Counted from the stretch's first letter, positions 144-13,197 are shown. The stretch: DNA of 13,197 nt from a virus (IMGVR_UViG_2703718841_000007), one strand, 5' to 3'. Numbers and translations: made by a program. Notes: generated by a model not told the origin, from the sequence alone.

Positions 144-1331
144 ATGCGTGTCAATAAGTCCACAGAGCATTCCCGACATCCGCAAAAAATGTTAACATCC
201 ATAAAAACACCAAGCGTAATTATTATAATGAAATATATTTTTGAATACGGACTTTATCTCAGCATACTTATAGCGACAATATATGTCACTTCTAAGTTAT
301 TGGGTATTACACCTGCAAAACATAAATACGCCTCGCTTGATGGCTTACGTGGAATTTGTGCAGCAATGGTTGCTGTATTCCATCTTTACTGGAGAGCCGG
401 AGGAGAATCAGATATATACTGGTCTCTTGAGTACATTACACTCAGCAATGTAAAACGCGCCATATATCTAACAGGAGAGTTATCTGTTGGGGTCTTTTTT
501 ATGCTGTCTGCTTTTTTATTTTTCAAAAAGGCACTAGCGGACTCCTTCGATGTAAAAAGCTTTGCAATTTCACGATTCATGCGAATTTACCCACCTGTAG
601 TTGTTCTTTTATTTATAATATATATTGCAACATTTATCATGAATCCGGATAACCATACTCCAGTATCGCAATGGTTTATATCTTCATTACCATTTATATT
701 CAATCCGCCTGGCGCTAACATCAATGGTGTATCGCTCCAGATTGCCACATCTGGTGTGTTCTGGACGTTAGTCTGGGAATTACGCCTATACCTTGCAATT
801 CCATTTTTATATCTGATAATGAAAAACATCAAATATAAAGAAGCATTTGTTATTTTTTTAATGGGATGTGTTTTATTATTCAAGTATTTTATAAACAATG
901 AACAACACCTGAGTTATATAATGTATTTCCTTGCAGGATTTCTTGTCGCTACAATCAAGAGCAACAAGCGCCCATCAGATATAATCTGCGCTTTATTATT
1001 ATTCGCAGCCATATATTTTACTCGACATGCTTACAACACTACAACTCCGCTTTATATGTTTATTGTTTTCTACACAATAAAGTGCGGATGTGATTACTTT
1101 GGCTTACTTACATCCCTGCCTGTAACTATGCTGGGAACCTGCAGTTTCTCCCTTTATTTAGTTCATGGGATAACTCAAACAGTATCTAAACATTATTTAT
1201 ATAGTGCAGGAAACTATGTTTGGCAGATTTGTGCAATTATTGCGGCAGGTATCATTGCGCCGGTTATGTACAAATATGTCGAAAGTCGCAGCATCATACA
1301 TAAGCGTCCTCAACTTCAGATTGCAAAGTAG
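144..1331 (+). CDS. Integral membrane acyltransferase, acyltransferase-3 family (OafA/Oac-like O-acetyltransferase type)
   Basis: Long ORF that is highly hydrophobic throughout. Family-typical N-terminal motif YASLDGLRGICAAMVAVFHL and FFMLSAFLFF segment. Strongly AT-rich (one 60-nt line, 601-660, hand-counted at 15 G+C). True start is uncertain: ATGs at 144, 189 and 228, none with a good Shine-Dalgarno. Confidence 0.75.
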   Translation: MRVNKSTEHSRHPQKMLTSIKTPSVIIIMKYIFEYGLYLSILIATIYVTSKLLGITPAKHKYASLDGLRGICAAMVAVFHLYWRAGGESDIYWSLEYITLSNVKRAIYLTGELSVGVFFMLSAFLFFKKALADSFDVKSFAISRFMRIYPPVVVLLFIIYIATFIMNPDNHTPVSQWFISSLPFIFNPPGANINGVSLQIATSGVFWTLVWELRLYLAIPFLYLIMKNIKYKEAFVIFLMGCVLLFKYFINNEQHLSYIMYFLAGFLVATIKSNKRPSDIICALLLFAAIYFTRHAYNTTTPLYMFIVFYTIKCGCDYFGLLTSLPVTMLGTCSFSLYLVHGITQTVSKHYLYSAGNYVWQICAIIAAGIIAPVMYKYVESRSIIHKRPQLQIAK

Positions 1332-1695: not shown

Positions 1696-1943
1696 CCGAT
1701 GCTCCCCCTAAATTTTTGAAAAAATTAGAAGTGGTCAGAAATCACCCTGATTTGTTGGTGGTTTTGTATATATCTCTGTTAGTGATTTGAGCATTGGTGC
1801 AGTACGTTAATGTAGGTACTGCCCCAGCCCGGTGTCCCGCTGTGCCGGGATGAACGCGATCTCGTCCATCTGGCTGTCAAATCCCTGCATTGCCCGTCTG
1901 GGCATGTTCGCAATGAGAAAATCGGTTAATGCCGTTAACTGGC

Positions 1944-2396
1944 TCATATCATGGCCACCGTAATGCGTTTCAGCCCTTTGATGCGGCGTACTGCCAGTGT
2001 GGACTCTGCAATCAGGCTGGAGCGGGTTTCGTCACTTTCCTGCCCCGGATGGCTCTCACGGCGACCAACAGACGCAAATTCGCCCATCAAATCAGCTTTG
2101 GCACGTGCATATACCGCTTTGCGATAACGGGCGCACAACAGATTTTCGCCGTCAATTTCCACGCCCGAAACGTCCGCCGCGCGCTCATGGCCAGCATTGC
2201 GATACCTTGCCGCCACACTGACCAGATCATCATTGATTTCGCCGGCTGCAGTCAGCAGTGCCTGGCGGATGGTGGCCGCATCAATATCGGCCGGAATGGT
2301 GCGCTGGGACTGAAAATCTTTCACGCTCAGGTCAGGCCAGAAGCCATCATTCGTCAGAGTGGCATCGTCAAAATCAATTGAAGTTCCGCTGAACAT
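1944..2396 (-). CDS. P2 gpL-like head completion/stabilisation protein
   Basis: ORF resembles the gpL family (FWPDLS region, central acidic region, Y-rich C-terminal part) and lies downstream of the M-like gene as in P2. The track ORF starts at GTG 2435; the ATG at 2396 has a GGAG Shine-Dalgarno 7 nt upstream and is preferred. Confidence 0.6.
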   Translation of the reverse strand: MFSGTSIDFDDATLTNDGFWPDLSVKDFQSQRTIPADIDAATIRQALLTAAGEINDDLVSVAARYRNAGHERAADVSGVEIDGENLLCARYRKAVYARAKADLMGEFASVGRRESHPGQESDETRSSLIAESTLAVRRIKGLKRITVAMI

Positions 2397-2489
2397 CCTG
2401 TTTCTCCGGAAAAAAGCGGGCTGGCCGGTTTCCACGGGCGATACGCTTATGCGATCCCCTCCACCGCGCCCGCTTTCGGGTCGGTAGTC

Positions 2490-2681
2490 TTACTCGCCGC
2501 GTTTTGCGGCCTGAATCTCACCTTCTTCAAACCACGCATCAGATGCGCGGCCGTCAGCAGTCTGATAGTGGATCAGATACTGATTGCAGCTGTTGGTGTA
2601 CTCCGCACGGGCTTTGATATGCCCCTCTTCGCCGCTAATGGAAACTTCAACAACCTGGCCTAACTCATGCTTAAACGACAT
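2490..2681 (-). CDS. Hypothetical small protein (63 aa) between the M-like and L-like genes
   Basis: ATG start at 2681 with a GGGAG Shine-Dalgarno 6-7 nt upstream; the start lies 1 nt after the M-like stop (tight coupling). No family recognised. Confidence 0.5.
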   Translation of the reverse strand: MSFKHELGQVVEVSISGEEGHIKARAEYTNSCNQYLIHYQTADGRASDAWFEEGEIQAAKRGE

Positions 2682-2682
2682 A

Positions 2683-3396
2683 TCAAACTCCCGTAGACTC
2701 TTTTTTCAGCGCCCGCAGACGCGCAGCAATACGCTGCAACATCGTGCCAACACCACATTTAGGGTCGAATCCCTTCGCCTGCTCCAGCAGTTCCTTAGCC
2801 CGGAGCAATACTTCCCTGTCTTCCGTTGCCGCTGCGCGTGGCTCTCCGTTTTCATCGCGTAGCAGGTGCAGACCGGCAAACTTCAGGTATTTGGCCTTAA
2901 TGACCTCATACACATTCCAGTGCTGCGTCACGTTTTCCAGCGTACGGCCAAAATACGGCTCCACATCATGCCCCTGTACGGCTTCCGCTTCCGCCCAGGA
3001 CAACACCGTATCCGCCACAAACACCGGGAACGTACTGCCGAACGCGGCCGGGGTTTCCTGCCCCCGCTGGATTGCCATATCCGCCCAGTCCAGCGCCTGG
3101 TCAAACTGGCCTGTATCAAACAGCCAGACGACACACCAGGCAAAAACAGGATTCTGTTGCACACTGTCACCTTCCAGCCAGGATTGCGCGGTTGGCATCC
3201 AGCGCGGTAACAGCACATCACGCTTAAATTCCATTCGCTCAGCGCGGCTTTCAATCGCTGCAGCTGCGGCGACATCTTTCTCCAGCGCGACAATCTGAAT
3301 ATGCAGGCTGGTTTCCGTGTCCAGAGACTGCTGCTGTCGCAGTAACCGCTCCGCTTCAATTCGTGCGCTGTGGCGCTGTGCCGGTGACAGTTGCAT
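2683..3396 (-). CDS. P2 gpM-like terminase small (endonuclease/DNA-recognition) subunit
   Basis: N-terminus MQLSPAQRH..., LLPRWMP and WLFDTGQFDQALDWADMAIQRG segments match my recollection of the gpM family. ATG at 3396 with a strong AGGGGGA Shine-Dalgarno; starts 10 nt after the O-like stop. Confidence 0.7.
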   Translation of the reverse strand: MQLSPAQRHSARIEAERLLRQQQSLDTETSLHIQIVALEKDVAAAAAIESRAERMEFKRDVLLPRWMPTAQSWLEGDSVQQNPVFAWCVVWLFDTGQFDQALDWADMAIQRGQETPAAFGSTFPVFVADTVLSWAEAEAVQGHDVEPYFGRTLENVTQHWNVYEVIKAKYLKFAGLHLLRDENGEPRAAATEDREVLLRAKELLEQAKGFDPKCGVGTMLQRIAARLRALKKESTGV

Positions 3397-3406
3397 TAAA
3401 TCCCCC

Positions 3407-4108
3407 TTACTCGCCTGCCGGAGGCGCGACAGGTGCCCCGATAGCTACCGCTTCTTCCGCCTCACCCAGACGGGTTTCAATAGCAGATACGCGCTTATCA
3501 ATGGCATCCAGCGCTTCAGCCAGCGCCTGTAAGGCATCAGACTGTGAAGGTTCCTGCTCCGGGGTCTGCTCCGGTTCTTCGATACTGAAAAAATGGCGCC
3601 AGCCCTTTTTCGCTGTCTTTGACATTCCCTTTTCCTTTTTAAATTCCCTGACTTCATCAAACGCCAGCGGCTTGTATGGTCCGATGCGTTTTCCCCTGGT
3701 GCGGCTGAAACGTAACCGTGTGGTGCTTACCCCGGCCGGACTGTCAGTAATGGCCAGTCCCTCAAGATAGGTTTTCCCGGTATTTCTGAAATTGCCGTCC
3801 GGTGTAAACTCCGGTGATAAAAATAAAAGCTGACCGTCTGCATTTGCCTGTAGCAATGAAATCGCCGGACAGAGGCGGGCATATAAACGAAGAATACCTT
3901 CATCATCCCGCTCGGCTTTTACTTCCAGCACCTCCCCCATATTCCCGAAATTACGGGAATGTTCCGGCCATAACAGCGCGGTATACAAAGAGGGGTCATA
4001 TAATTCAGCGGCATCAAGCAACCATTGTTCTTCAATAAATCGCTTATCAACCGTTTCACCCGCAGTGGCGATACAAATCCAGTTTGTTGCCAGTTGTGAA
4101 CCTGACAT
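3407..4108 (-). CDS. P2 gpO-like capsid scaffolding protein/protease
   Basis: GKTYLEGLAITDSPAGVSTTRL and a C-terminal coiled-coil-like region (EALDAIDKRVSAIETRLGEAEE) resemble the gpO family. The track ORF starts at GTG 4168, but the ATG at 4108 has a perfect GGAGG 5 nt upstream and is preferred. Shorter than my recollection of P2 gpO (about 284 aa). Confidence 0.7.
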   Translation of the reverse strand: MSGSQLATNWICIATAGETVDKRFIEEQWLLDAAELYDPSLYTALLWPEHSRNFGNMGEVLEVKAERDDEGILRLYARLCPAISLLQANADGQLLFLSPEFTPDGNFRNTGKTYLEGLAITDSPAGVSTTRLRFSRTRGKRIGPYKPLAFDEVREFKKEKGMSKTAKKGWRHFFSIEEPEQTPEQEPSQSDALQALAEALDAIDKRVSAIETRLGEAEEAVAIGAPVAPPAGE

Positions 4109-4251
4109 ATTGCCTCCGTTCATGCTGCGGTTTTCAGTATCGCCAATAAAATTAACCGCCGCATTCACTTCATTTCGGATATAGGCTATTAGCCGAACAC
4201 ATCAGAAATAAAGCGGGATTTAATATACAAACGCCCGTGCATAATGTGTGC

Positions 4252-5496
4252 ATGGCTAAATATTCAGAAGAATTAAAAGGCGTTGCGCGGGCGCTTTATT
4301 TAAAACGCTATACCCCGCAGGAAATTGCCAGCGAACTTAATCTGCCTAACAGACGCATTGTCTATTACTGGGCGGAGAAATATTGCTGGGCGGAATTACT
4401 CAGTCATGAATCCACCGAAGATGCATTAAACCGTCGCATTCAGTCACTGACATTACGTGAAGGGAAATCGGAGCTGGAGCTGCGGGAGCTGGACAGTCTC
4501 GTTTCTCACCTGGTGAAACTACGTGCACAGCACAATAAGCATCAGGAAAAGCTGGCAGAAATTAAACACAGTGAAAATGATGCGCCGGCGCGTCAGTCCG
4601 GTGGCGACGAAAAGCCCCGGAAACGTGGCAAGTACAAAAAGAACGACATCAGCGGACTGACACAGGAAGATTTTGACCGGTTCGCGCTGGAGCACCTTTT
4701 CGGTTACCAGAAACACCTTCGCGCTAATCTTCATCAGCAAATCAGGAACATCCTGAAAAGCCGCCAGATTGGTGCAACCTGGTATTTCTCAATAGAAGCC
4801 TTTGAGAATGCGGTCATGACAGGCGATCCGCAAATCTTCCTGTCCGCATCAAAGGCTCAGGCGGAAGTATTCCGCAGCTATATCGTCAACATTGCGGAGC
4901 AGTATTTCGGCGTGGAGCTGACGGGAAACCCCATCCGCCTCTCCAACGGCGCGGAGATGCGATTCCTGTCCACCAACAAGAACACCGCCCAGTCATACAG
5001 CGGCCATCTGTACTGCGATGAATATTTCTGGGTACCCAACTTTGCAAAATTAAACGAAGTGGCCAGCGCGATGGCCACACACGACAAATGGCGAACCACC
5101 TACTTTTCCACCCCCAGCAGCAAAACGCACCAGGCGTACCCGTTCTGGACTGGTGAAGAATGGAAGCGCGGTGACAAAAAACGCGCGCGCGTACAATTTC
5201 CCACGGAGAAGGAGCTGCGCGACGGTGGACGGTTATGTCCTGATGGGCAGTGGCGCTACATCATCACAATGGAAGACGCGATCGCAGGCGGGTTTAATCT
5301 CGCCAGCATCGGGAAGCTGCGCAACCGCTACAACCGCGACACTTTCAACATGCTGTATATGTGCGTGTTCGTGGACAGCAAGGACAGCGTATTTTCGTTC
5401 TCTCACGTAGAACGCTGCTGTGTAGATCCGGATATGACAATGAAGCGGAACACTGGACGCTCCCGATTGACCGGCTGGCGCTGGCGCAACTGGTGA
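4252..5496 (+). CDS. P2 gpP-like terminase large (ATPase) subunit, C-terminally truncated; probable pseudogene
   Basis: N-terminal HTH-like region, then KSRQIGATWYF (Walker A-like), FLSAS, DEYFWVP (Walker B-like) and YFSTPSS...PFWTGE typical of the gpP family. Family resemblance stops near 5427 (...HVERCCVD) and the ORF ends after a 23-aa unrelated tail. It has about 415 aa against about 590 in P2 gpP (recalled), so the C-terminal nuclease domain is absent. The GTG at 4237 is an alternative start. Confidence 0.65.
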   Translation: MAKYSEELKGVARALYLKRYTPQEIASELNLPNRRIVYYWAEKYCWAELLSHESTEDALNRRIQSLTLREGKSELELRELDSLVSHLVKLRAQHNKHQEKLAEIKHSENDAPARQSGGDEKPRKRGKYKKNDISGLTQEDFDRFALEHLFGYQKHLRANLHQQIRNILKSRQIGATWYFSIEAFENAVMTGDPQIFLSASKAQAEVFRSYIVNIAEQYFGVELTGNPIRLSNGAEMRFLSTNKNTAQSYSGHLYCDEYFWVPNFAKLNEVASAMATHDKWRTTYFSTPSSKTHQAYPFWTGEEWKRGDKKRARVQFPTEKELRDGGRLCPDGQWRYIITMEDAIAGGFNLASIGKLRNRYNRDTFNMLYMCVFVDSKDSVFSFSHVERCCVDPDMTMKRNTGRSRLTGWRWRNW

Positions 5497-6332
5497 ACCT
5501 GAACGCGCAGCACGGCGGTGTGCTGTATGCCCGTCGCAATATGGTGACGGCAAACTATAAAGACGGCGGACTGACGCATGAACAGCTTGGTGCAGCCGTG
5601 TTCGACTGGCTGACCTTCGGTGATGTGGCCATTCTGAAAGTGCGTAACGGCTGGGGGGATGTGGTGGCACTGTACCCGCTGCCGGCACTCTATACCCGCC
5701 AGCGTAAGACCGGGGAGTTTGTGGTACTGCAGCAGGGTGAACCGATGATTTATCCGCCTGAAGATATTATTTTTCTCAGGCAGTACGATCCGCAACAGGC
5801 GATTTATGGTCTGCCGGATTATATCAGCGGTATCCATTCTGCCCTGCTTAACGGTGAGGCAACAATTTTTCGTCGGCGTTACTACCATAACGGCGGACAC
5901 ACAGGTGGCATGATCTACTGTAACGACCCAAATATGACTGATGAAGTGGAAGAAGAAATTATTCAGAAGCTGGAGCAGTCAAAGGGGATCGGGAACTTCA
6001 GCACCATGTTTGTGAACATCCCCAAAGGCGATCCGGACGGCATCAAATTTATCCCGATTGGGGATATCAGCGCCAAAGATGAGTTTCAGAACATCAAGAG
6101 CATCAGCGCCCAGGACGTACTGACCGCGCATCGATTCCCGGCAGGACTGGCGGGGATTATCCCGACGAACGGCGCAGTAATGGGAGATGTTGAGAAAGCG
6201 TCCAAAACCTACCGCAAAGCAGAAATTTTGCCCATTCAGCGCATGTTTACCGCCGCAGTGGAACAGGAAAGTGATGTACCGCCCCACCTGTACCTTAATT
6301 TCCTGAAAGACAGTGAGCTGGAAGGTGATTAA
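5361..6332 (+). CDS. P2 gpQ-like portal protein, N-terminally truncated and out of frame with the upstream P-like ORF; probable pseudogene
   Basis: IYGLPDYISGIHSALLNGEATIFRRRYYHNGGHTGG and the downstream KGIGNF...DGIKFIPIGDISAKDEFQNIKSISAQDVLTAHRFPAGL resemble the gpQ portal family. Resemblance begins about 25-35 residues into this frame-3 ORF, which overlaps the end of the frame-1 P-like ORF. The listed start is a GTG chosen by the ORF caller, not a credible initiation site. Confidence 0.6.
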   Translation: MRVRGQQGQRIFVLSRRTLLCRSGYDNEAEHWTLPIDRLALAQLVNLNAQHGGVLYARRNMVTANYKDGGLTHEQLGAAVFDWLTFGDVAILKVRNGWGDVVALYPLPALYTRQRKTGEFVVLQQGEPMIYPPEDIIFLRQYDPQQAIYGLPDYISGIHSALLNGEATIFRRRYYHNGGHTGGMIYCNDPNMTDEVEEEIIQKLEQSKGIGNFSTMFVNIPKGDPDGIKFIPIGDISAKDEFQNIKSISAQDVLTAHRFPAGLAGIIPTNGAVMGDVEKASKTYRKAEILPIQRMFTAAVEQESDVPPHLYLNFLKDSELEGD

Positions 6333-6385
6333 TGTTCGCAAAAAGGCTAAAATATCATCGTTTTCCAACTTCCGGAGCGATGGAT

Positions 6386-6661
6386 ATGCGGGTAATGAAG
6401 GTTTACTGTCCGGTATGTGAGGCAAGGGCTGTTATCAAAAAAACAGCCCGAAAACACAAGGAACTGTCGGATTTATATTGCGCGTGTACCGATGTTGAAT
6501 GTGGTCACACTTTTGTGATGAATATGACATTCTCACATACCATCAGCCCCAGCGCCAAATCCAGCGATGCGTTGATCGCCACTATCTGTAACAGCCTTGA
6601 TATCCAGCAAAAGCAGCTGATGTTAAAGTTTCTGAGTCAGGACGGCACTGCTGCCGCATAG
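6386..6661 (+). CDS. ogr: Ogr/Delta-family zinc-finger late-gene transcriptional activator
   Basis: Exact C-x2-C-x22-C-x4-C spacing (CPVC...CACTDVEC) as in P2 Ogr. The ATG at 6386 has GGAG 8 nt upstream. The frame is open from the ATG at 6332, which overlaps the portal stop as TAATG; another ATG at 6395 would give an MKVYCPVC N-terminus, closest to Ogr. Confidence 0.8.
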   Translation: MRVMKVYCPVCEARAVIKKTARKHKELSDLYCACTDVECGHTFVMNMTFSHTISPSAKSSDALIATICNSLDIQQKQLMLKFLSQDGTAAA

Positions 6662-6692
6662 AAAAAAGCACCGCTACCGGTGCTTTTATTTT
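6662..6692. terminator. Bidirectional intrinsic terminator
   Basis: A-run 6662-6667, stem GCACCG (6668-6673) / CGGTGC (6678-6683), loop CTAC, T-run TTTTATTTT 6684-6692. Confidence 0.75.
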
Positions 6693-6742
6693 CTGAGATG
6701 TAACAGATTCCCATCTATCAACGTCGATGAATGACCAAGTGA

Positions 6743-6800
6743 TTAATAGTCCCCCCCTCCTAAACATGATATTATCTTTCCAAATTTTGGGAGGCATCTT
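6743..6800 (+). promoter_or_regulatory. Putative promoter and RBS of the glycosyltransferase-like cargo gene (extended -10 TGaTATTAT; C7 tract upstream; GGGAGG Shine-Dalgarno)
   Basis: Read directly: TGATATTAT at 6767-6775 (extended -10-like), C7 homopolymer 6751-6757 where a -35 would lie, GGGAGG 6789-6794 six nt before the ATG at 6801. No confident -35. Confidence 0.35.
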
Positions 6801-7520
6801 ATGTTAATAGTCTCAGTTCTTAAATGTAGTAAAGAGTTTACCCCTAAACACGCCCAATGGCTTCATCGTCAGTTCAAAGATATTCCATCTATATGTTTAA
6901 CCGATGCAGATAATATTCCTGGAGTTAACACAACCCCTTTGCTTTATAACTGGCCGGGATGGTGGTCTAAAATTGAACTATTTAATCCTAATCACCCAGT
7001 CCTTGGAGACCAAGATTTACTCTATTTTGACGTAGATGTTGTGGTCACGGGAGATATTCATATTTTCGAAGGTGCGAAGAAATTTACAATGCTTCGGGAG
7101 TTTAACCATGCCTCAAGAGTAAACTCATCAATAATGATGATTCCGGCGTCGATTAAAAAGACGATTTGGGAACAATTCATTATTGATCCTGAGAAAATTA
7201 TGCGCAATTGTCAGACTGAAGACAAATGGGGTGATCAGGGATTTCTCGGTAGCATCATAAAACCAGCCCTATGGCAGGATATCATTCCTGGCTCAATTGT
7301 TAGTTATAAATGTGACATCGCCACCCCCTCGATGATTGGCTTCAATGCAAATTTAGCCTCTGAGGCTGCGACAGGGAAAGTCCCTGATAATGTGGCGGTT
7401 GTTTGCTTTCATGGCAGTCCACGCCCCTGGCGTACTGGTTTTGATTGGGTTCCTTCGTTTTCCCTGCGGGATACTCTGTACGGTAAATTAAAGAACTTTA
7501 AAATAAGAATGAAGCAATAA
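6801..7520 (+). CDS. GT-A-fold glycosyltransferase-like protein (GT8-like DxD and H-x-G-x-x-[KR]-P-W motifs); accessory/cargo gene
   Basis: LYFDVDVVV (DxD, about residue 75) and CFHGSPRPW (about residue 212) match the two signature motifs of retaining GT8-type transferases (LgtC/WaaJ type), with similar inter-motif spacing. Strong Shine-Dalgarno. AT-rich relative to neighbours (60-nt lines hand-counted: 6841-6900 has 24 G+C, 7141-7200 has 21 G+C). Convergent with the primase gene. Confidence 0.5.
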   Translation: MLIVSVLKCSKEFTPKHAQWLHRQFKDIPSICLTDADNIPGVNTTPLLYNWPGWWSKIELFNPNHPVLGDQDLLYFDVDVVVTGDIHIFEGAKKFTMLREFNHASRVNSSIMMIPASIKKTIWEQFIIDPEKIMRNCQTEDKWGDQGFLGSIIKPALWQDIIPGSIVSYKCDIATPSMIGFNANLASEAATGKVPDNVAVVCFHGSPRPWRTGFDWVPSFSLRDTLYGKLKNFKIRMKQ

Positions 7521-7588: not shown

Positions 7589-10246
7589 TTACTTTTCCCG
7601 GCCAAATATCCAGCAGCGGAATGTTTCCGGCATCCGTTGCATATCCCCTTTACCACGATTATGGCGCTCACTTACCGCGCTGCGCGTGGTGCTTTGTCTG
7701 ATAAACCGGCGCTCATTGCCGTTTTTAAGCAGCTTTTTAATTTCCGTTAACGTGAACGGAATACGCTGCCGGTGTGCTGCGGCGACCTCTTCCATGTGAT
7801 TGAAATTAACCGCGATTTCATTTTCATCTGATGAATGATTGATGCCATAAGGTGCCAGTTCATCCAAGTAATCAAACAGCTCCCAGAACTCCTGCACCAG
7901 AGGATGATCCTTTTTAAGTGCCTGACAACGTTCAACGGCCAGCGCGGTGATGGCTTCACGCGTTTTTTCTATACGTTCAACCGGCACCGGTACAACAAGT
8001 GCAAGCGCCTCCAGCAAGCCCACAAGCTGCGCGTGATTCTTTGCAATACGGATATGGCGAATACTGCTATTAGACTCCAGCTCATTCCTAGCTCGCTCGT
8101 ACCCCCTGCCGAACGTCTGCATGATTTCTTTTTCGCGCATGGTGGCCAGTAATGTGAATCCGGATACCTGGCTAACGGGGAGTTGTTCAAGTCGTTCTGC
8201 AGCGTGGCGCGTCTGAATGGACTGGCCGCGCTTGTCGGTATAGATGTGGATGATACGCTCCAGAAACGCCTTGCTGCCGTCTGTGTCGGCATTTTGCGCT
8301 ATCACAATACTTCCCCTGAACGGCGGCTCATACGTCTCGTTATTGTTCGATTTGATACCCACGGCGCGGGAGGCACGACCGTTATACAGTGATTTCAGCT
8401 CGTCCCAGTCAAAAGCGCGTTGCTTGGCGTTATCGGTAGTACGGTCGCCCTCAATCAGCACAACCGGCAGATTACCGACCTGGGCGAAGTTACGGCCACG
8501 CGCGGCGGCGGTAGATTTAGATGGGTCAAACCCTTCGTATTCCTCACGGCCGGCGAGCTTCCAGAGAAATTCTATCAGCGTGGATTTACCTGTCCCCGGC
8601 TCGCCCACGATTTCCAGAAACGGAAATGACTTGTCACGCTCGCGGATTTGTTCGGCAAACAGCGACCCCAGCCAGAACGCCAGAGCCACATACCCTTTTT
8701 CACCAAATGCCGTCCAGATATCGTCTACCCAACCCGTAGTAAACTCGTTCAGCTTCGGATTCAGATCCAGCGCCGGCGTGAGGCTCAGGCTCTTAACACT
8801 GGCACTGTTGATTTCGAAGTAATCCTCGTCGTTCATCTCATACAGCCGGCCATCGCAAACGGCCACGCGGTTAAACAACCAGGCGGCATAATCCTTGTTA
8901 TAGCCGATGAAATTCTGCGTCTTTACCTCTTTGATTTCAGGGAGGCGCATCTGGATGAACTTATCCAGCTGTTTGGTGCTGCCTGTGTACACCGCCCCTT
9001 TGGCGATGTGCAGCAGACGCTTTTTGAACTCGGCGGAGCTGGTGAGCTGATTAGCCGTGAAAGTATCTTTCACGGCTGGCCGGTTAGGCATACTGACTTT
9101 CACGTAATACCAGGACTCGTCCGTAGGTTCAGACCGCTGAAAGTAAAGCGGCGTCAGCCAGCAGTTAGCTATTTCGGTCACGCCGCCTGACTCTTTAACC
9201 GCCCGTTCTTTGGCCTCCCACTCCATCACCACTTCGGTACCGGTATTGGTGATGCGCTCATAGGCTCGCATATACCTGTCCAGATCCAGCTCAAACCAGT
9301 ACATGCGGGAGTTATGCTCAAAGTAGAACGAGTGCCACTCGTTATGCTGATGCATGAGCAGCGCTTTCTCAGTCGGGCTTTTTGCCAGAAGGAGATCGCC
9401 ATAGTAGCGATAATTTTTAATGTCCGACTTACTGAACCGGTTACGTAACAACAGGTCATTCCAGTCCAGCGATGCCGATGATTTCACCGGCTGCGCGGCA
9501 CGAGTTTTCCATCCTGCAGCATCACTACGGGCAGCGAACGCCAGTGTGTGCTTTGTGCCGGCTTTATCGCCGTCAAACGCCCATACAAGACGTGGACGTG
9601 GTTTTTCACCCAGTTCTTTGGCCAGCGTATCCAGTGCGGCCAGCGGATAGTTGTTACTGCTCAGTGTGGCAACTGCAGGTAACCCTGCCTGGCACAGACT
9701 CAGCGCGTTGAAGATTCCCTCAGTGATCCAGATTTCGTTCACTTCCTGCAGGTTGATAAAGGGAGGAACCCACCAGTGACCGACATAGCTTCCCCTGATG
9801 TTGGCTTTCTGCTTACCGAAGCGCTGCGGCTGGTCAATGATGCGCTCCCATGTTGCACCGCATGACAGCGAAAATCTGACCGTTGCCGACCCCATGCCAT
9901 CTTTCACGAATGCACCCTGGGTAAAACAGCCTTTTAATGGCTCAGTCTCCAGCCCTCTGGCCTCGCGCAGATACGCCTCAGCTACTGCATGGGGGTTATC
10001 TTCTGTGGTCTGGTAACGTTTTGACCAGTCTTCAAAGATATCCGGATACAGCTCTTTCACGACAATCTGATGTGCGCAGTTATTTTCACGGCCACATTTC
10101 AGAATCCAGGGCTTTTCTATGCTGGTAAATAATTCGCGCTTACGACAGGCAGGGCAAACGCCCTGCTGCAAATACTTATCCCGCTCTTTAAATTCAAAGT
10201 CCCGAACAAGACGGCGCACAACGTCCTGTTGTATCGTTTCGTTCAT
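7589..10246 (-). CDS. P4-alpha-type bifunctional DNA primase/helicase (zinc-binding plus TOPRIM primase, P-loop helicase, C-terminal domain)
   Basis: CPACRK...CGRENNC zinc motif; TOPRIM-like ITEGIFNALSL and WAFDGDKAG; Walker A IVGEPGTGKST. One 60-nt line (8461-8520) hand-counted at 38 G+C. The ORF is open from TTG 10282; the first ATG is 10246; neither has a good Shine-Dalgarno. This is not a P2 A-type rolling-circle initiator. Confidence 0.8.
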   Translation of the reverse strand: MNETIQQDVVRRLVRDFEFKERDKYLQQGVCPACRKRELFTSIEKPWILKCGRENNCAHQIVVKELYPDIFEDWSKRYQTTEDNPHAVAEAYLREARGLETEPLKGCFTQGAFVKDGMGSATVRFSLSCGATWERIIDQPQRFGKQKANIRGSYVGHWWVPPFINLQEVNEIWITEGIFNALSLCQAGLPAVATLSSNNYPLAALDTLAKELGEKPRPRLVWAFDGDKAGTKHTLAFAARSDAAGWKTRAAQPVKSSASLDWNDLLLRNRFSKSDIKNYRYYGDLLLAKSPTEKALLMHQHNEWHSFYFEHNSRMYWFELDLDRYMRAYERITNTGTEVVMEWEAKERAVKESGGVTEIANCWLTPLYFQRSEPTDESWYYVKVSMPNRPAVKDTFTANQLTSSAEFKKRLLHIAKGAVYTGSTKQLDKFIQMRLPEIKEVKTQNFIGYNKDYAAWLFNRVAVCDGRLYEMNDEDYFEINSASVKSLSLTPALDLNPKLNEFTTGWVDDIWTAFGEKGYVALAFWLGSLFAEQIRERDKSFPFLEIVGEPGTGKSTLIEFLWKLAGREEYEGFDPSKSTAAARGRNFAQVGNLPVVLIEGDRTTDNAKQRAFDWDELKSLYNGRASRAVGIKSNNNETYEPPFRGSIVIAQNADTDGSKAFLERIIHIYTDKRGQSIQTRHAAERLEQLPVSQVSGFTLLATMREKEIMQTFGRGYERARNELESNSSIRHIRIAKNHAQLVGLLEALALVVPVPVERIEKTREAITALAVERCQALKKDHPLVQEFWELFDYLDELAPYGINHSSDENEIAVNFNHMEEVAAAHRQRIPFTLTEIKKLLKNGNERRFIRQSTTRSAVSERHNRGKGDMQRMPETFRCWIFGREK

Positions 10247-10285: not shown

Positions 10286-10504
10286 CTATATTCTGTACTG
10301 CTTGTTATATCGCTCATGTGTCATTAGTTCCCAGCTTCTGCCCTTATCCTTACTCAGTAATCGCCAGCGATAAGAAACATAAACAGAGAAATAATGTTTT
10401 GGCTTAATAACCTGATATACCTTTTTGCCGTTGTAATATTCTGTCAGCACTGAAAATGCCTTGTGAATGACACTTTCACTTGCATGAGAGGTCACTGTAA
10501 GCAT
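10286..10504 (-). CDS. Hypothetical protein (72 aa), AT-rich
   Basis: ATG start 2 nt after the exonuclease stop; ends 3 nt before the primase ORF. No family recognised. Lys/Tyr/Arg-rich. Confidence 0.45.
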   Translation of the reverse strand: MLTVTSHASESVIHKAFSVLTEYYNGKKVYQVIKPKHYFSVYVSYRWRLLSKDKGRSWELMTHERYNKQYRI

Positions 10505-12203: not shown

Positions 12204-12464
12204 ATGTCGATTAAGAAGCTTGATGATGGTCGTTTTGAAGTGGACGTTAGACCGCGCGGAACCTCAGGAAGAAGGATTCGACGCAAATTTGACAGAAAGG
12301 CGGAAGCACAGGCATACGAGCGGTATGTACTGACAAACTTTCACGATAAAGAATGGCAGGATAAACCCGCAGACAGGAGGCTTGTATCCGAGTTAATTTC
12401 TTTATGGTGGAGCTACCATGGAAAGAATCACAACTATGGTGACTCATATAAAAAGCGTTTGGAA
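12204..12464 (+). pseudogene. int: Tyrosine integrase, N-terminal arm-binding domain fragment (frame 3), separated from the catalytic part by a +1 frameshift
   Basis: MSIKKLDDGRFEVDVRPRGTSGRRIRRKFDRKAEAQAYERY is a typical phage integrase N-terminal domain. GGAGGG Shine-Dalgarno 7 nt before the ATG at 12204. The reading frame switches inside the A7 run at 12463-12469. Confidence 0.65.
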
Positions 12465-13197
12465 AAAAATCAACCGAGAAATGGCGGAACCCAGAGTGTA
12501 CGAGCTTACCCGCAACTTTCTGATGAAATATCGTGCAGAACGACTTCATAGTGGAGTATCTGCTGGCACGGTAAACAGGGATTTCTGTTCCATGTCCAGC
12601 ATGTTCAGTTTGCTGATAGATATGGAAGAATTTCATCACGAAAACCCGTTTCGCGCCGTGAAGAAGTTACGTCTGGAAAACACAGAAATGTCATTTCTGT
12701 CCGAAGAAGAGATCCACCATTTGCTGAATGCCCTTACAGGGGATGATCGCAGAGTTGTCGTTCTTTGCCTGAATACAGGAGCACGATGGGGTGAAGCCAG
12801 TAATCTTAAAGCTGAAAACGTGATAAGTAACCGTGTGACCTTTGTTAAGACCAAAACCGGCCCAGCTCGTACTGTTCCGATATCGAAGGAAATCGCGGAC
12901 TACATCCTTACACGCAAATCGGGGAAATTGTTCGATACCAACTATGAGCGAGTTCGCGATGTTCTTCGTAAGATTAAGCCAGACTTGCCGAAAGGTCAGG
13001 CACTGCATGTTTTACGCCATACCTTCGCAACACATTTCATGATCAACGGCGGGAATATCATCACGCTACAGCGTATTTTGGGTCATACAACAATCGAGCA
13101 AACAATGACATATGCTCACTTCGCCCCAGATTATCTGACTGATGCCATACGATTTAACCCTATGCGTGGGAGTGTCCACATAATGTCCACCGACTAG
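12418..13197 (+). CDS. int: Tyrosine integrase, core-binding and catalytic domains (frame 1); C-terminal part of the frameshifted int
   Basis: Catalytic signatures TGARWGEA (box I Arg) and HVLRHTFATHFMINGGNIITLQRILGHTTIEQTMTYAHF (H-x-x-R and Tyr region). The stop codon is the last three bases of the window. The ORF's own ATG at 12418 is internal to the gene. Confidence 0.85.
   Translation: MERITTMVTHIKSVWKKINREMAEPRVYELTRNFLMKYRAERLHSGVSAGTVNRDFCSMSSMFSLLIDMEEFHHENPFRAVKKLRLENTEMSFLSEEEIHHLLNALTGDDRRVVVLCLNTGARWGEASNLKAENVISNRVTFVKTKTGPARTVPISKEIADYILTRKSGKLFDTNYERVRDVLRKIKPDLPKGQALHVLRHTFATHFMINGGNIITLQRILGHTTIEQTMTYAHFAPDYLTDAIRFNPMRGSVHIMSTD

Follow-up and report, generated by a model that had tools for sequence, protein, structure and literature searches.

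A truncated terminase-portal junction, very probably the scar of a 717-bp deletion, in a remnant of a P2-family prophage of Escherichia coli

Why does the reading frame of a phage large terminase give way, out of frame, to that of a portal protein? The question is raised by a 13,197-nucleotide stretch of viral DNA (IMGVR_UViG_2703718841_000007), analyzed here over its whole length and referred to as the window. An earlier note, made from the sequence alone, had described a large terminase truncated at its C-terminus, with the ATPase part kept and the nuclease part lost, that is joined out of frame to a portal protein truncated at its N-terminus. Our analysis upheld this description and set the portal loss at the first 40 codons.

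The truncated, gpP-like large terminase gene (terL) was assigned to 4252–5496 on the plus strand by Pfam, alignment to P2, and the annotation of E. coli PSJ-12. Its frame-1 ORF spans 4237–5496, and the true start is the ATG at 4252, which corresponds to the annotated start position in intact alleles. The 414-aa product consists of 394 native residues followed by 20 out-of-frame residues (MTMKRNTGRSRLTGWRWRNW) and a TGA stop at 5494–5496. The native start and the upstream region are still in place. Pfam searches revealed Terminase_5 (PF06056) at residues 9–63 and the Terminase_6N ATPase domain (PF03237) at residues 166–386. The Terminase_6C nuclease domain, located at residues 415–573 of the intact 593-aa TerL, was absent, which is the outcome expected in the earlier note for a domain search of this ORF. 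Alignment with P2 gpP showed 44% identity over 384 aligned residues and ended at residue 392 of 414, matching the proposal that family resemblance is lost after about 5427 and that the frame stops at 5496. Walker A (KSRQIGAT) and Walker B (DE) aligned with those of P2 gpP. The sole PDB sequence matches of intact TerL were terminase nuclease-domain structures aligned to residues 446–568, all within the part that is missing from the window. Thus, the N-terminal features of a P2-type gpP (Terminase_5 and Terminase_6N with both Walker motifs) were present in the 414-aa product, and the C-terminal RNaseH-like nuclease domain was not. Judged by this domain content, the window terL is a gpP pseudogene and no functional member of the P2-type large terminases. 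The PSJ-12 terL is already annotated by NCBI as a pseudogene, "missing C-terminus".

The remnant of the gpQ-like portal gene, codons 41–339, occupies 5433–6332 on the plus strand, as identified by alignment with P2 gpQ and by phrog_68. The frame-3 ORF that contains it runs from 5361 to 6332, and the intact portal allele encodes 339 aa. A portal domain was clearly recognized (PF04860, E = 2e-16; phrog_68, E = 8e-115), with positions 47–336 of the 344-position phrog_68 profile covered. Similarity to P2 gpQ extended across the remaining portal at 34% identity and covered the rest of frame 3; portal-like sequence had been proposed from about 5440, close to the breakpoint at 5433–5435 described below. 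A PDB sequence search with the intact portal gave no match. A complete portal ORF with its own start, translationally coupled to terL, is no longer present, since codons 1–40 and the ATGA overlap have been deleted. The remaining start candidates are GTG 5361 (inside terL), ATT 5391 (called by PGAP) and GTG 5493 (called in contigs of the Logan assemblies, giving a 279-aa product), of which ATT 5391 and GTG 5493 are backed by a gene caller alone. At 5493–5496 (plus strand), the sequence reads GTGA, in which the portal-frame GTG lies over the new terL TGA stop. This overlap is fortuitous and offers a candidate re-initiation point.

The junction itself, hereafter D3, was mapped by base-by-base comparison with the intact alleles of E. 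coli PK5 and NT1F10. At window positions 5433–5435/5436, the loss amounts to exactly 717 bp, where approximately 0.6–0.7 kb had been estimated from P2 lengths of about 590 aa for gpP and 344 aa for gpQ; the intact alleles, at 593 and 339 aa, are close to these. Agreement with the intact allele extends to 5435 on the left and begins at 5433 on the right; the shared TAT at 5433–5435 is a 3-nt microhomology. Both flanks are 100% identical to the intact alleles of the two strains. As the junction is exact and resolved to the base, chance is not a concern. No longer imperfect repeats were found at the breakpoints beyond TAT. D3 joins codon 394/395 of terL to codon 41 of the portal gene, taking away TerL residues 395–593, including the whole Terminase_6C domain, and portal residues 1–40 together with the portal start codon. 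Pfam and the intact-allele comparison thus agreed with the earlier note that the lost part comprised the terminase nuclease domain and the portal N-terminus. In the intact allele, terL and the portal gene overlap by ATGA in different frames; therefore, the TerL frame now reads 20 foreign codons and then stops. Although 717 is a multiple of three, the frame is lost because the junction joins two differently framed genes.

We compared window positions 4000–6700 with complete E. coli genomes by megablast, which yielded 18 genomes at 99% identity or above. Sixteen of the 18 matched in two pieces spanning approximately 717 more bases, while PSJ-12 and 23CRST024 were colinear with the window. The allele with the extra 717 bases was 99.9–100% identical in the 16 genomes, and the 717-bp segment occurred once in each of them among 5,426 complete E. 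coli genomes. It was absent from the whole genomes of PSJ-12 and 23CRST024, the scar carriers, indicating that it was deleted and not relocated. The segment encodes conserved domains common to P2 and thousands of its relatives, which identifies the long form as ancestral. The converse, that the 717 bp are an insertion in the other strains, was considered and excluded, as the segment encodes the nuclease domain and portal N-terminus that P2 shares. Overall, the intact allele was found at the same locus with near-identical flanks, and the short form of terL was limited to one E. coli lineage, as expected of a pseudogene formed by deletion.

Any single sequence invites the generic worry that such a junction is a sequencing or assembly artefact, for instance a collapsed repeat or a mis-join, and nothing specific to this locus favors it. 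Two complete genomes, finished independently of each other, have the same junction, as do Logan assemblies from separate sequencing runs, and no repeat longer than 3 nt that could collapse flanks the deleted segment. The exact 414-aa product was found on at least 24 contigs from independent assemblies, and the exact intact 593-aa protein on 338 contigs. One Logan contig (SRR13871106_13) differed from the window by a single mismatch over all 13,197 bases. We regard an artefact as having almost no likelihood.

The junction might also be a natural architecture, in the form of a family of short gpP-like ATPases accompanied by an internally initiated portal, or of a TerL-portal fusion made by programmed frameshifting. 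The end-to-end match of the truncated ORF to phrog_3746 ("terminase large subunit"), a profile of 374 positions, speaks for a short family. Such a conserved family, which the earlier note had named as the finding that would overturn its reading, was looked for among homologs of the truncated TerL. Among the best 120 representatives of 90%-identity clusters, 119 were 578–639 aa long and carried the nuclease domain (PF17289); the lone short one was a 327-aa fragment on a 3.2-kb contig. The 90% cluster of TerL itself has 794 members, and all 14 other members listed were 593–597 aa long. No slippery heptamer was seen by eye between 5436 and 5496, and the complete identity of both flanks to intact alleles is likewise at odds with a natural short form. 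A natural architecture is therefore scarcely credible.

The surroundings of the junction show what kind of element carries it. The window is a remnant of an approximately 29-kb Evevirus-like prophage (Peduoviridae, P2 family) located between raiA and pheL in E. coli. A full-length prophage occupies the raiA-pheL locus in 12 complete genomes, including NT1F10, with gene sets for tail, baseplate, tape measure, lysis, head, packaging, replication and lysogeny. The synteny of Peduoviridae (int-C-Cox, a replication gene, portal-terL divergent from scaffold-capsid-terS-gpL, and tail) is complete in this sister prophage and in phage ev239. Only the subset left after the deletions is found in the window, whose element is thus a remnant of a Peduoviridae member.

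At the raiA-proximal end, a 16-bp direct repeat, CCTTCGGGCGCGTTTT, lies at 30–45 (unstranded) and is found again in NT1F10, 90 nt beyond the stop of the integrase. By arithmetic, approximately 6e-4 chance matches are expected for the two stretches compared, and the repeat is likely the att core. This placement puts the O-acetyltransferase-like acyltransferase gene (144–1331, plus strand; Pfam Acyl_transf_3, phrog_3333) inside the prophage as cargo. The gene is intact and was present in all seven variants whose raiA-proximal end was compared. Downstream of it, 1380–1815 is an AT-rich non-coding stretch that reaches to the first deletion junction (D1, below). Seven of the nine window copies of TGTGATG fall within 1488–1681, against a mean of two in shuffled sequences, and the cluster includes a perfect 9-bp palindrome, TGTGATGGT-aaa-ACCATCACA, at 1488–1508. 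An 11-bp tandem repeat, TGTGATGCTCT, at 1587–1615 has one extra copy in NT1F10. The repeats of 1380–1815 may represent a regulator-binding array for the cargo gene.

On the minus strand follow the head completion gene gpL (1944–2396; intact by Pfam Phage_GPL and the PSJ-12 annotation), the small terminase gene gpM (2683–3396) and the scaffold/protease gene gpO (3407–4108). The small terminase had been noted as apparently intact, and indeed gpM is an intact 237-aa ORF with full Pfam coverage (Phage_term_smal, profile positions 2–127 of 130). The gpO gene is truncated at its C-terminus (Phage_GPO, profile positions 2–230 of 268), measuring 702 nt in the window versus 840 nt in intact alleles. 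On the plus strand, the Ogr/Delta late-gene activator (6332–6661; Pfam Ogr_Delta) is intact and is the last gene of the terL-portal operon, with a terminator-like hairpin after it at 6664–6687. The Toprim primase/helicase-like replication gene (7589–10246, minus strand) is intact in the window, and the integrase is a pseudogene with a +1 frameshift (12204–13197, plus strand; annotated as "frameshifted" in PSJ-12). The A-run of the integrase gene numbers seven A in the window against six in the intact allele, and the added base was assigned to 12463. Scanned with Rfam at gathering thresholds, the window gave no match over its whole length.

Two further small ORFs were observed in this part of the window. 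A 239-aa ORF at 6801–7520 (plus strand) matched phrog_1962 ("glycosyltransferase", moron category; E = 6e-81) and had no Pfam or PADLOC match. It sits between ogr and the primase gene, where ev239 has different small genes, and the position therefore appears to be a variable cargo slot. A 72-aa ORF of a ParE-like toxin family at 10286–10504 (minus strand), between the exonuclease and primase genes, was intact in all variants examined; an adjacent antitoxin annotation was absent.

D3 is one of several lesions in this lineage. Comparison of the window with the NT1F10 composite, by which D1, D2 and D3 were all mapped as unstranded junctions, placed D1 at 1815–1818, with 13,898 bp of tail, baseplate and lysis genes lost and a 4-nt microhomology, GGTA. 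D2 was placed at 3443–3451, with 1,201 bp lost and an exact microhomology, TACCGC. D2 took out all of gpN, the major capsid gene, and cut off the scaffold gene at its 3' end; no capsid ORF was found in the window. PSJ-12, 23CRST024 and Logan contig SRR20708242 have an additional 954-bp deletion in the primase gene (window 9087–10040), with a TA microhomology. The window lacks this deletion, and therefore belongs to an earlier point in the same series of losses. Every contig with D3 also has D1 and D2, so that the alleles compared give no order among these three; the primase deletion alone is demonstrably later. Since the losses also extend to the capsid gene, to every tail and lysis gene and to the reading frame of the integrase, the element is a dead prophage remnant and not one that lacks just its own terminase.

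The microhomologies measure 3 nt at D3, 4 nt at D1, 6 nt at D2 and 2 nt at the primase deletion. The chance of finding at least that length, calculated from 200,000 simulated random junctions in the prophage, was P = 0.056, 0.019, 0.002 and 0.16, respectively. Taken alone, the 3-nt microhomology of D3 is marginally non-random (P ~0.06). The D3 microhomology and those of 2–6 nt at the other deletions together point to illegitimate recombination, and a RecA-independent event of this kind, either replication slippage (slipped mispairing) or microhomology-mediated end joining, would account for D3. In this one deletion, TerL lost its RNaseH-like nuclease domain and the portal both its start and its N-terminus; the scar would then have been inherited clonally. 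We conclude with high confidence, from the comparison of alleles, that the feature is most probably a scar left when a P2-family prophage spontaneously lost 717 bp by deletion, and that it marks one step in the stepwise decay of this prophage. Without a functional integrase and without its genes for tail, lysis and capsid, the remnant is no longer able to excise or to form particles. The ORFs for the O-acetyltransferase and the glycosyltransferase-like moron and those of the regulatory and replication genes are still intact.

For the two chimeric ORFs, the best reading is that of pseudogenes whose expression and function have presumably been lost, while the fortuitous GTGA overlap could permit some translation of the portal fragment. 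We searched for expression signals around the junction. No exact TGT-N12-ACA, the activator site of P2 late promoters, occurred in 4100–4300 upstream of terL, and a scan of 4000–6800 detected no sigma-70-like promoter. The promoter scan bears on a further explanation, in which the remnant has been domesticated and the ATPase-only TerL (with gpM and gpL), or the portal begun at GTG 5493, is retained as a dominant-negative or decoy against packaging by incoming P2-like phages. In the truncated terL, the native start is kept, as are Terminase_5 and the whole ATPase domain; the gpM, gpL and Ogr ORFs are all intact, and the scar persists in at least 24 assemblies, as retention would predict. However, all copies are approximately 100% identical, leaving no divergence for a test of selection, and clonal descent explains their persistence. 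The lack of a sigma-70-like promoter in the scanned interval also argues against it, as does PADLOC, which gave no match in the set scanned (unannotated small ORFs and cargo proteins, TerL and gpM not among them). We consider domestication very improbable, if somewhat less so than the two readings dismissed above. A related reading, likewise a long shot in our estimation, would have the ATPase-only TerL or the portal fragment from GTGA 5493 expressed upon Ogr-type activation, supplied or induced by a related P2-like phage, and poisoning the packaging motor or portal ring; if true, the scar would be an accidental module of superinfection interference.

The fate of the same prophage in other strains also speaks against domestication and for decay by deletion. 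The prophage was present at 99% identity or above in 19 complete genomes, in 12 of them at full length and in 7 degraded. The seven represent at least five separate decay routes, namely the window lineage and at least four others. In PK5 and CUPF12, the capsid N-terminus is fused to a gpV/gp5-like spike (PK5 locus 3463–5235). In HZ13, an IS5-family element stands at the point of contact between the baseplate genes and the region upstream of terL, and the integrase contains an internal stop. In YPE10, the sheath gene is joined to the middle of terL, so that the ATPase half is lost and the nuclease half kept, the opposite of the window. E89 retains just the primase-to-integrase part, with IS100 in the integrase. 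The gene gpM is gone altogether in HZ13 and E89. Other lineages destroy the genes in question, and do so in different ways.

These findings bear mainly on annotation. The scar is an ordinary pseudogene-forming lesion, one of several in the remnant, and the kind of event is already known. We suggest that 4252–5496 and 5433–6332 be labeled as pseudogene fragments of one deletion event; the names "terminase" and "phage portal protein", with an ATT or GTG start, are inappropriate for the two ORFs. Stepwise prophage decay is displayed here at a small, clean locus: full-length, intermediate and further-degraded alleles are available at approximately 100% identity, and E. coli shows five or more independent decay routes. 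Such a set could serve as teaching material or as a benchmark for prophage-completeness callers. Beyond annotation, the significance is small.

Compared with known systems, the locus follows the P-Q operon of P2 (NC_001895), with the same layout, divergent O and P operons and a P stop that overlaps the Q start, whereas in the window P is missing its 3' third and Q its first 40 codons. In the phage group of the window, ogr lies directly downstream of the portal gene, while P2 has a terminator and the cos end after Q. The closest phage is ESSI2_ev239 (Evevirus ev239, Peduoviridae; NC_049392), in which gene order is the same throughout and nucleotide identity is mosaic, at 82–98%. Its genome measures 29.2 kb, compared with approximately 29 kb between the candidate att cores in NT1F10, and is complete, with a terL of 595 aa and a portal of 339 aa; the cargo between ogr and primase differs. 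A literature search for ESSI2/ev239 brought up passing mentions, the remaining hits being unrelated papers on the HEV239 vaccine. A separate observation concerns the gpL-gpM block (within 1815–3451), which is 98.4% identical to ev239, compared with 82–88% for terL, portal and primase; this pattern suggests that the head module has recently recombined between Evevirus-like phages.

P4-like satellites and capsid-forming PICIs carry an integrase, Cox, a primase, an Ogr/Delta-type activator and some head genes, and have no tail genes. A satellite of either type was considered from the tail-less gene set of the window and rejected once the full-length sister prophage had been found. The likeness is superficial, as the capsid gene of the window is gone and its terminase and portal are broken. 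An evolved lack of structural genes, a functional integrase and redirection of packaging by its own means were not found; the losses are recent deletions from a complete phage, the integrase is frameshifted, and other lineages lost different sets of genes. The sister prophage, in NT1F10 and 11 other complete genomes, is approximately 99.8–99.9% identical over the aligned phage blocks and occupies the same integration site, but has what the window lacks: the 717 bp, the capsid gene, tail and lysis genes amounting to approximately 13.9 kb, and an integrase that is in frame.

Cryptic prophages of E. coli, such as Rac, e14 and CP4-57 of K-12, decay stepwise by deletions, IS insertions and frameshifts. 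The window does not differ from them in kind, since in both cases morphogenesis genes were lost and cargo and regulatory genes kept. What is unusual is how well the present case is documented, with both intact and intermediate alleles available at approximately 100% identity.
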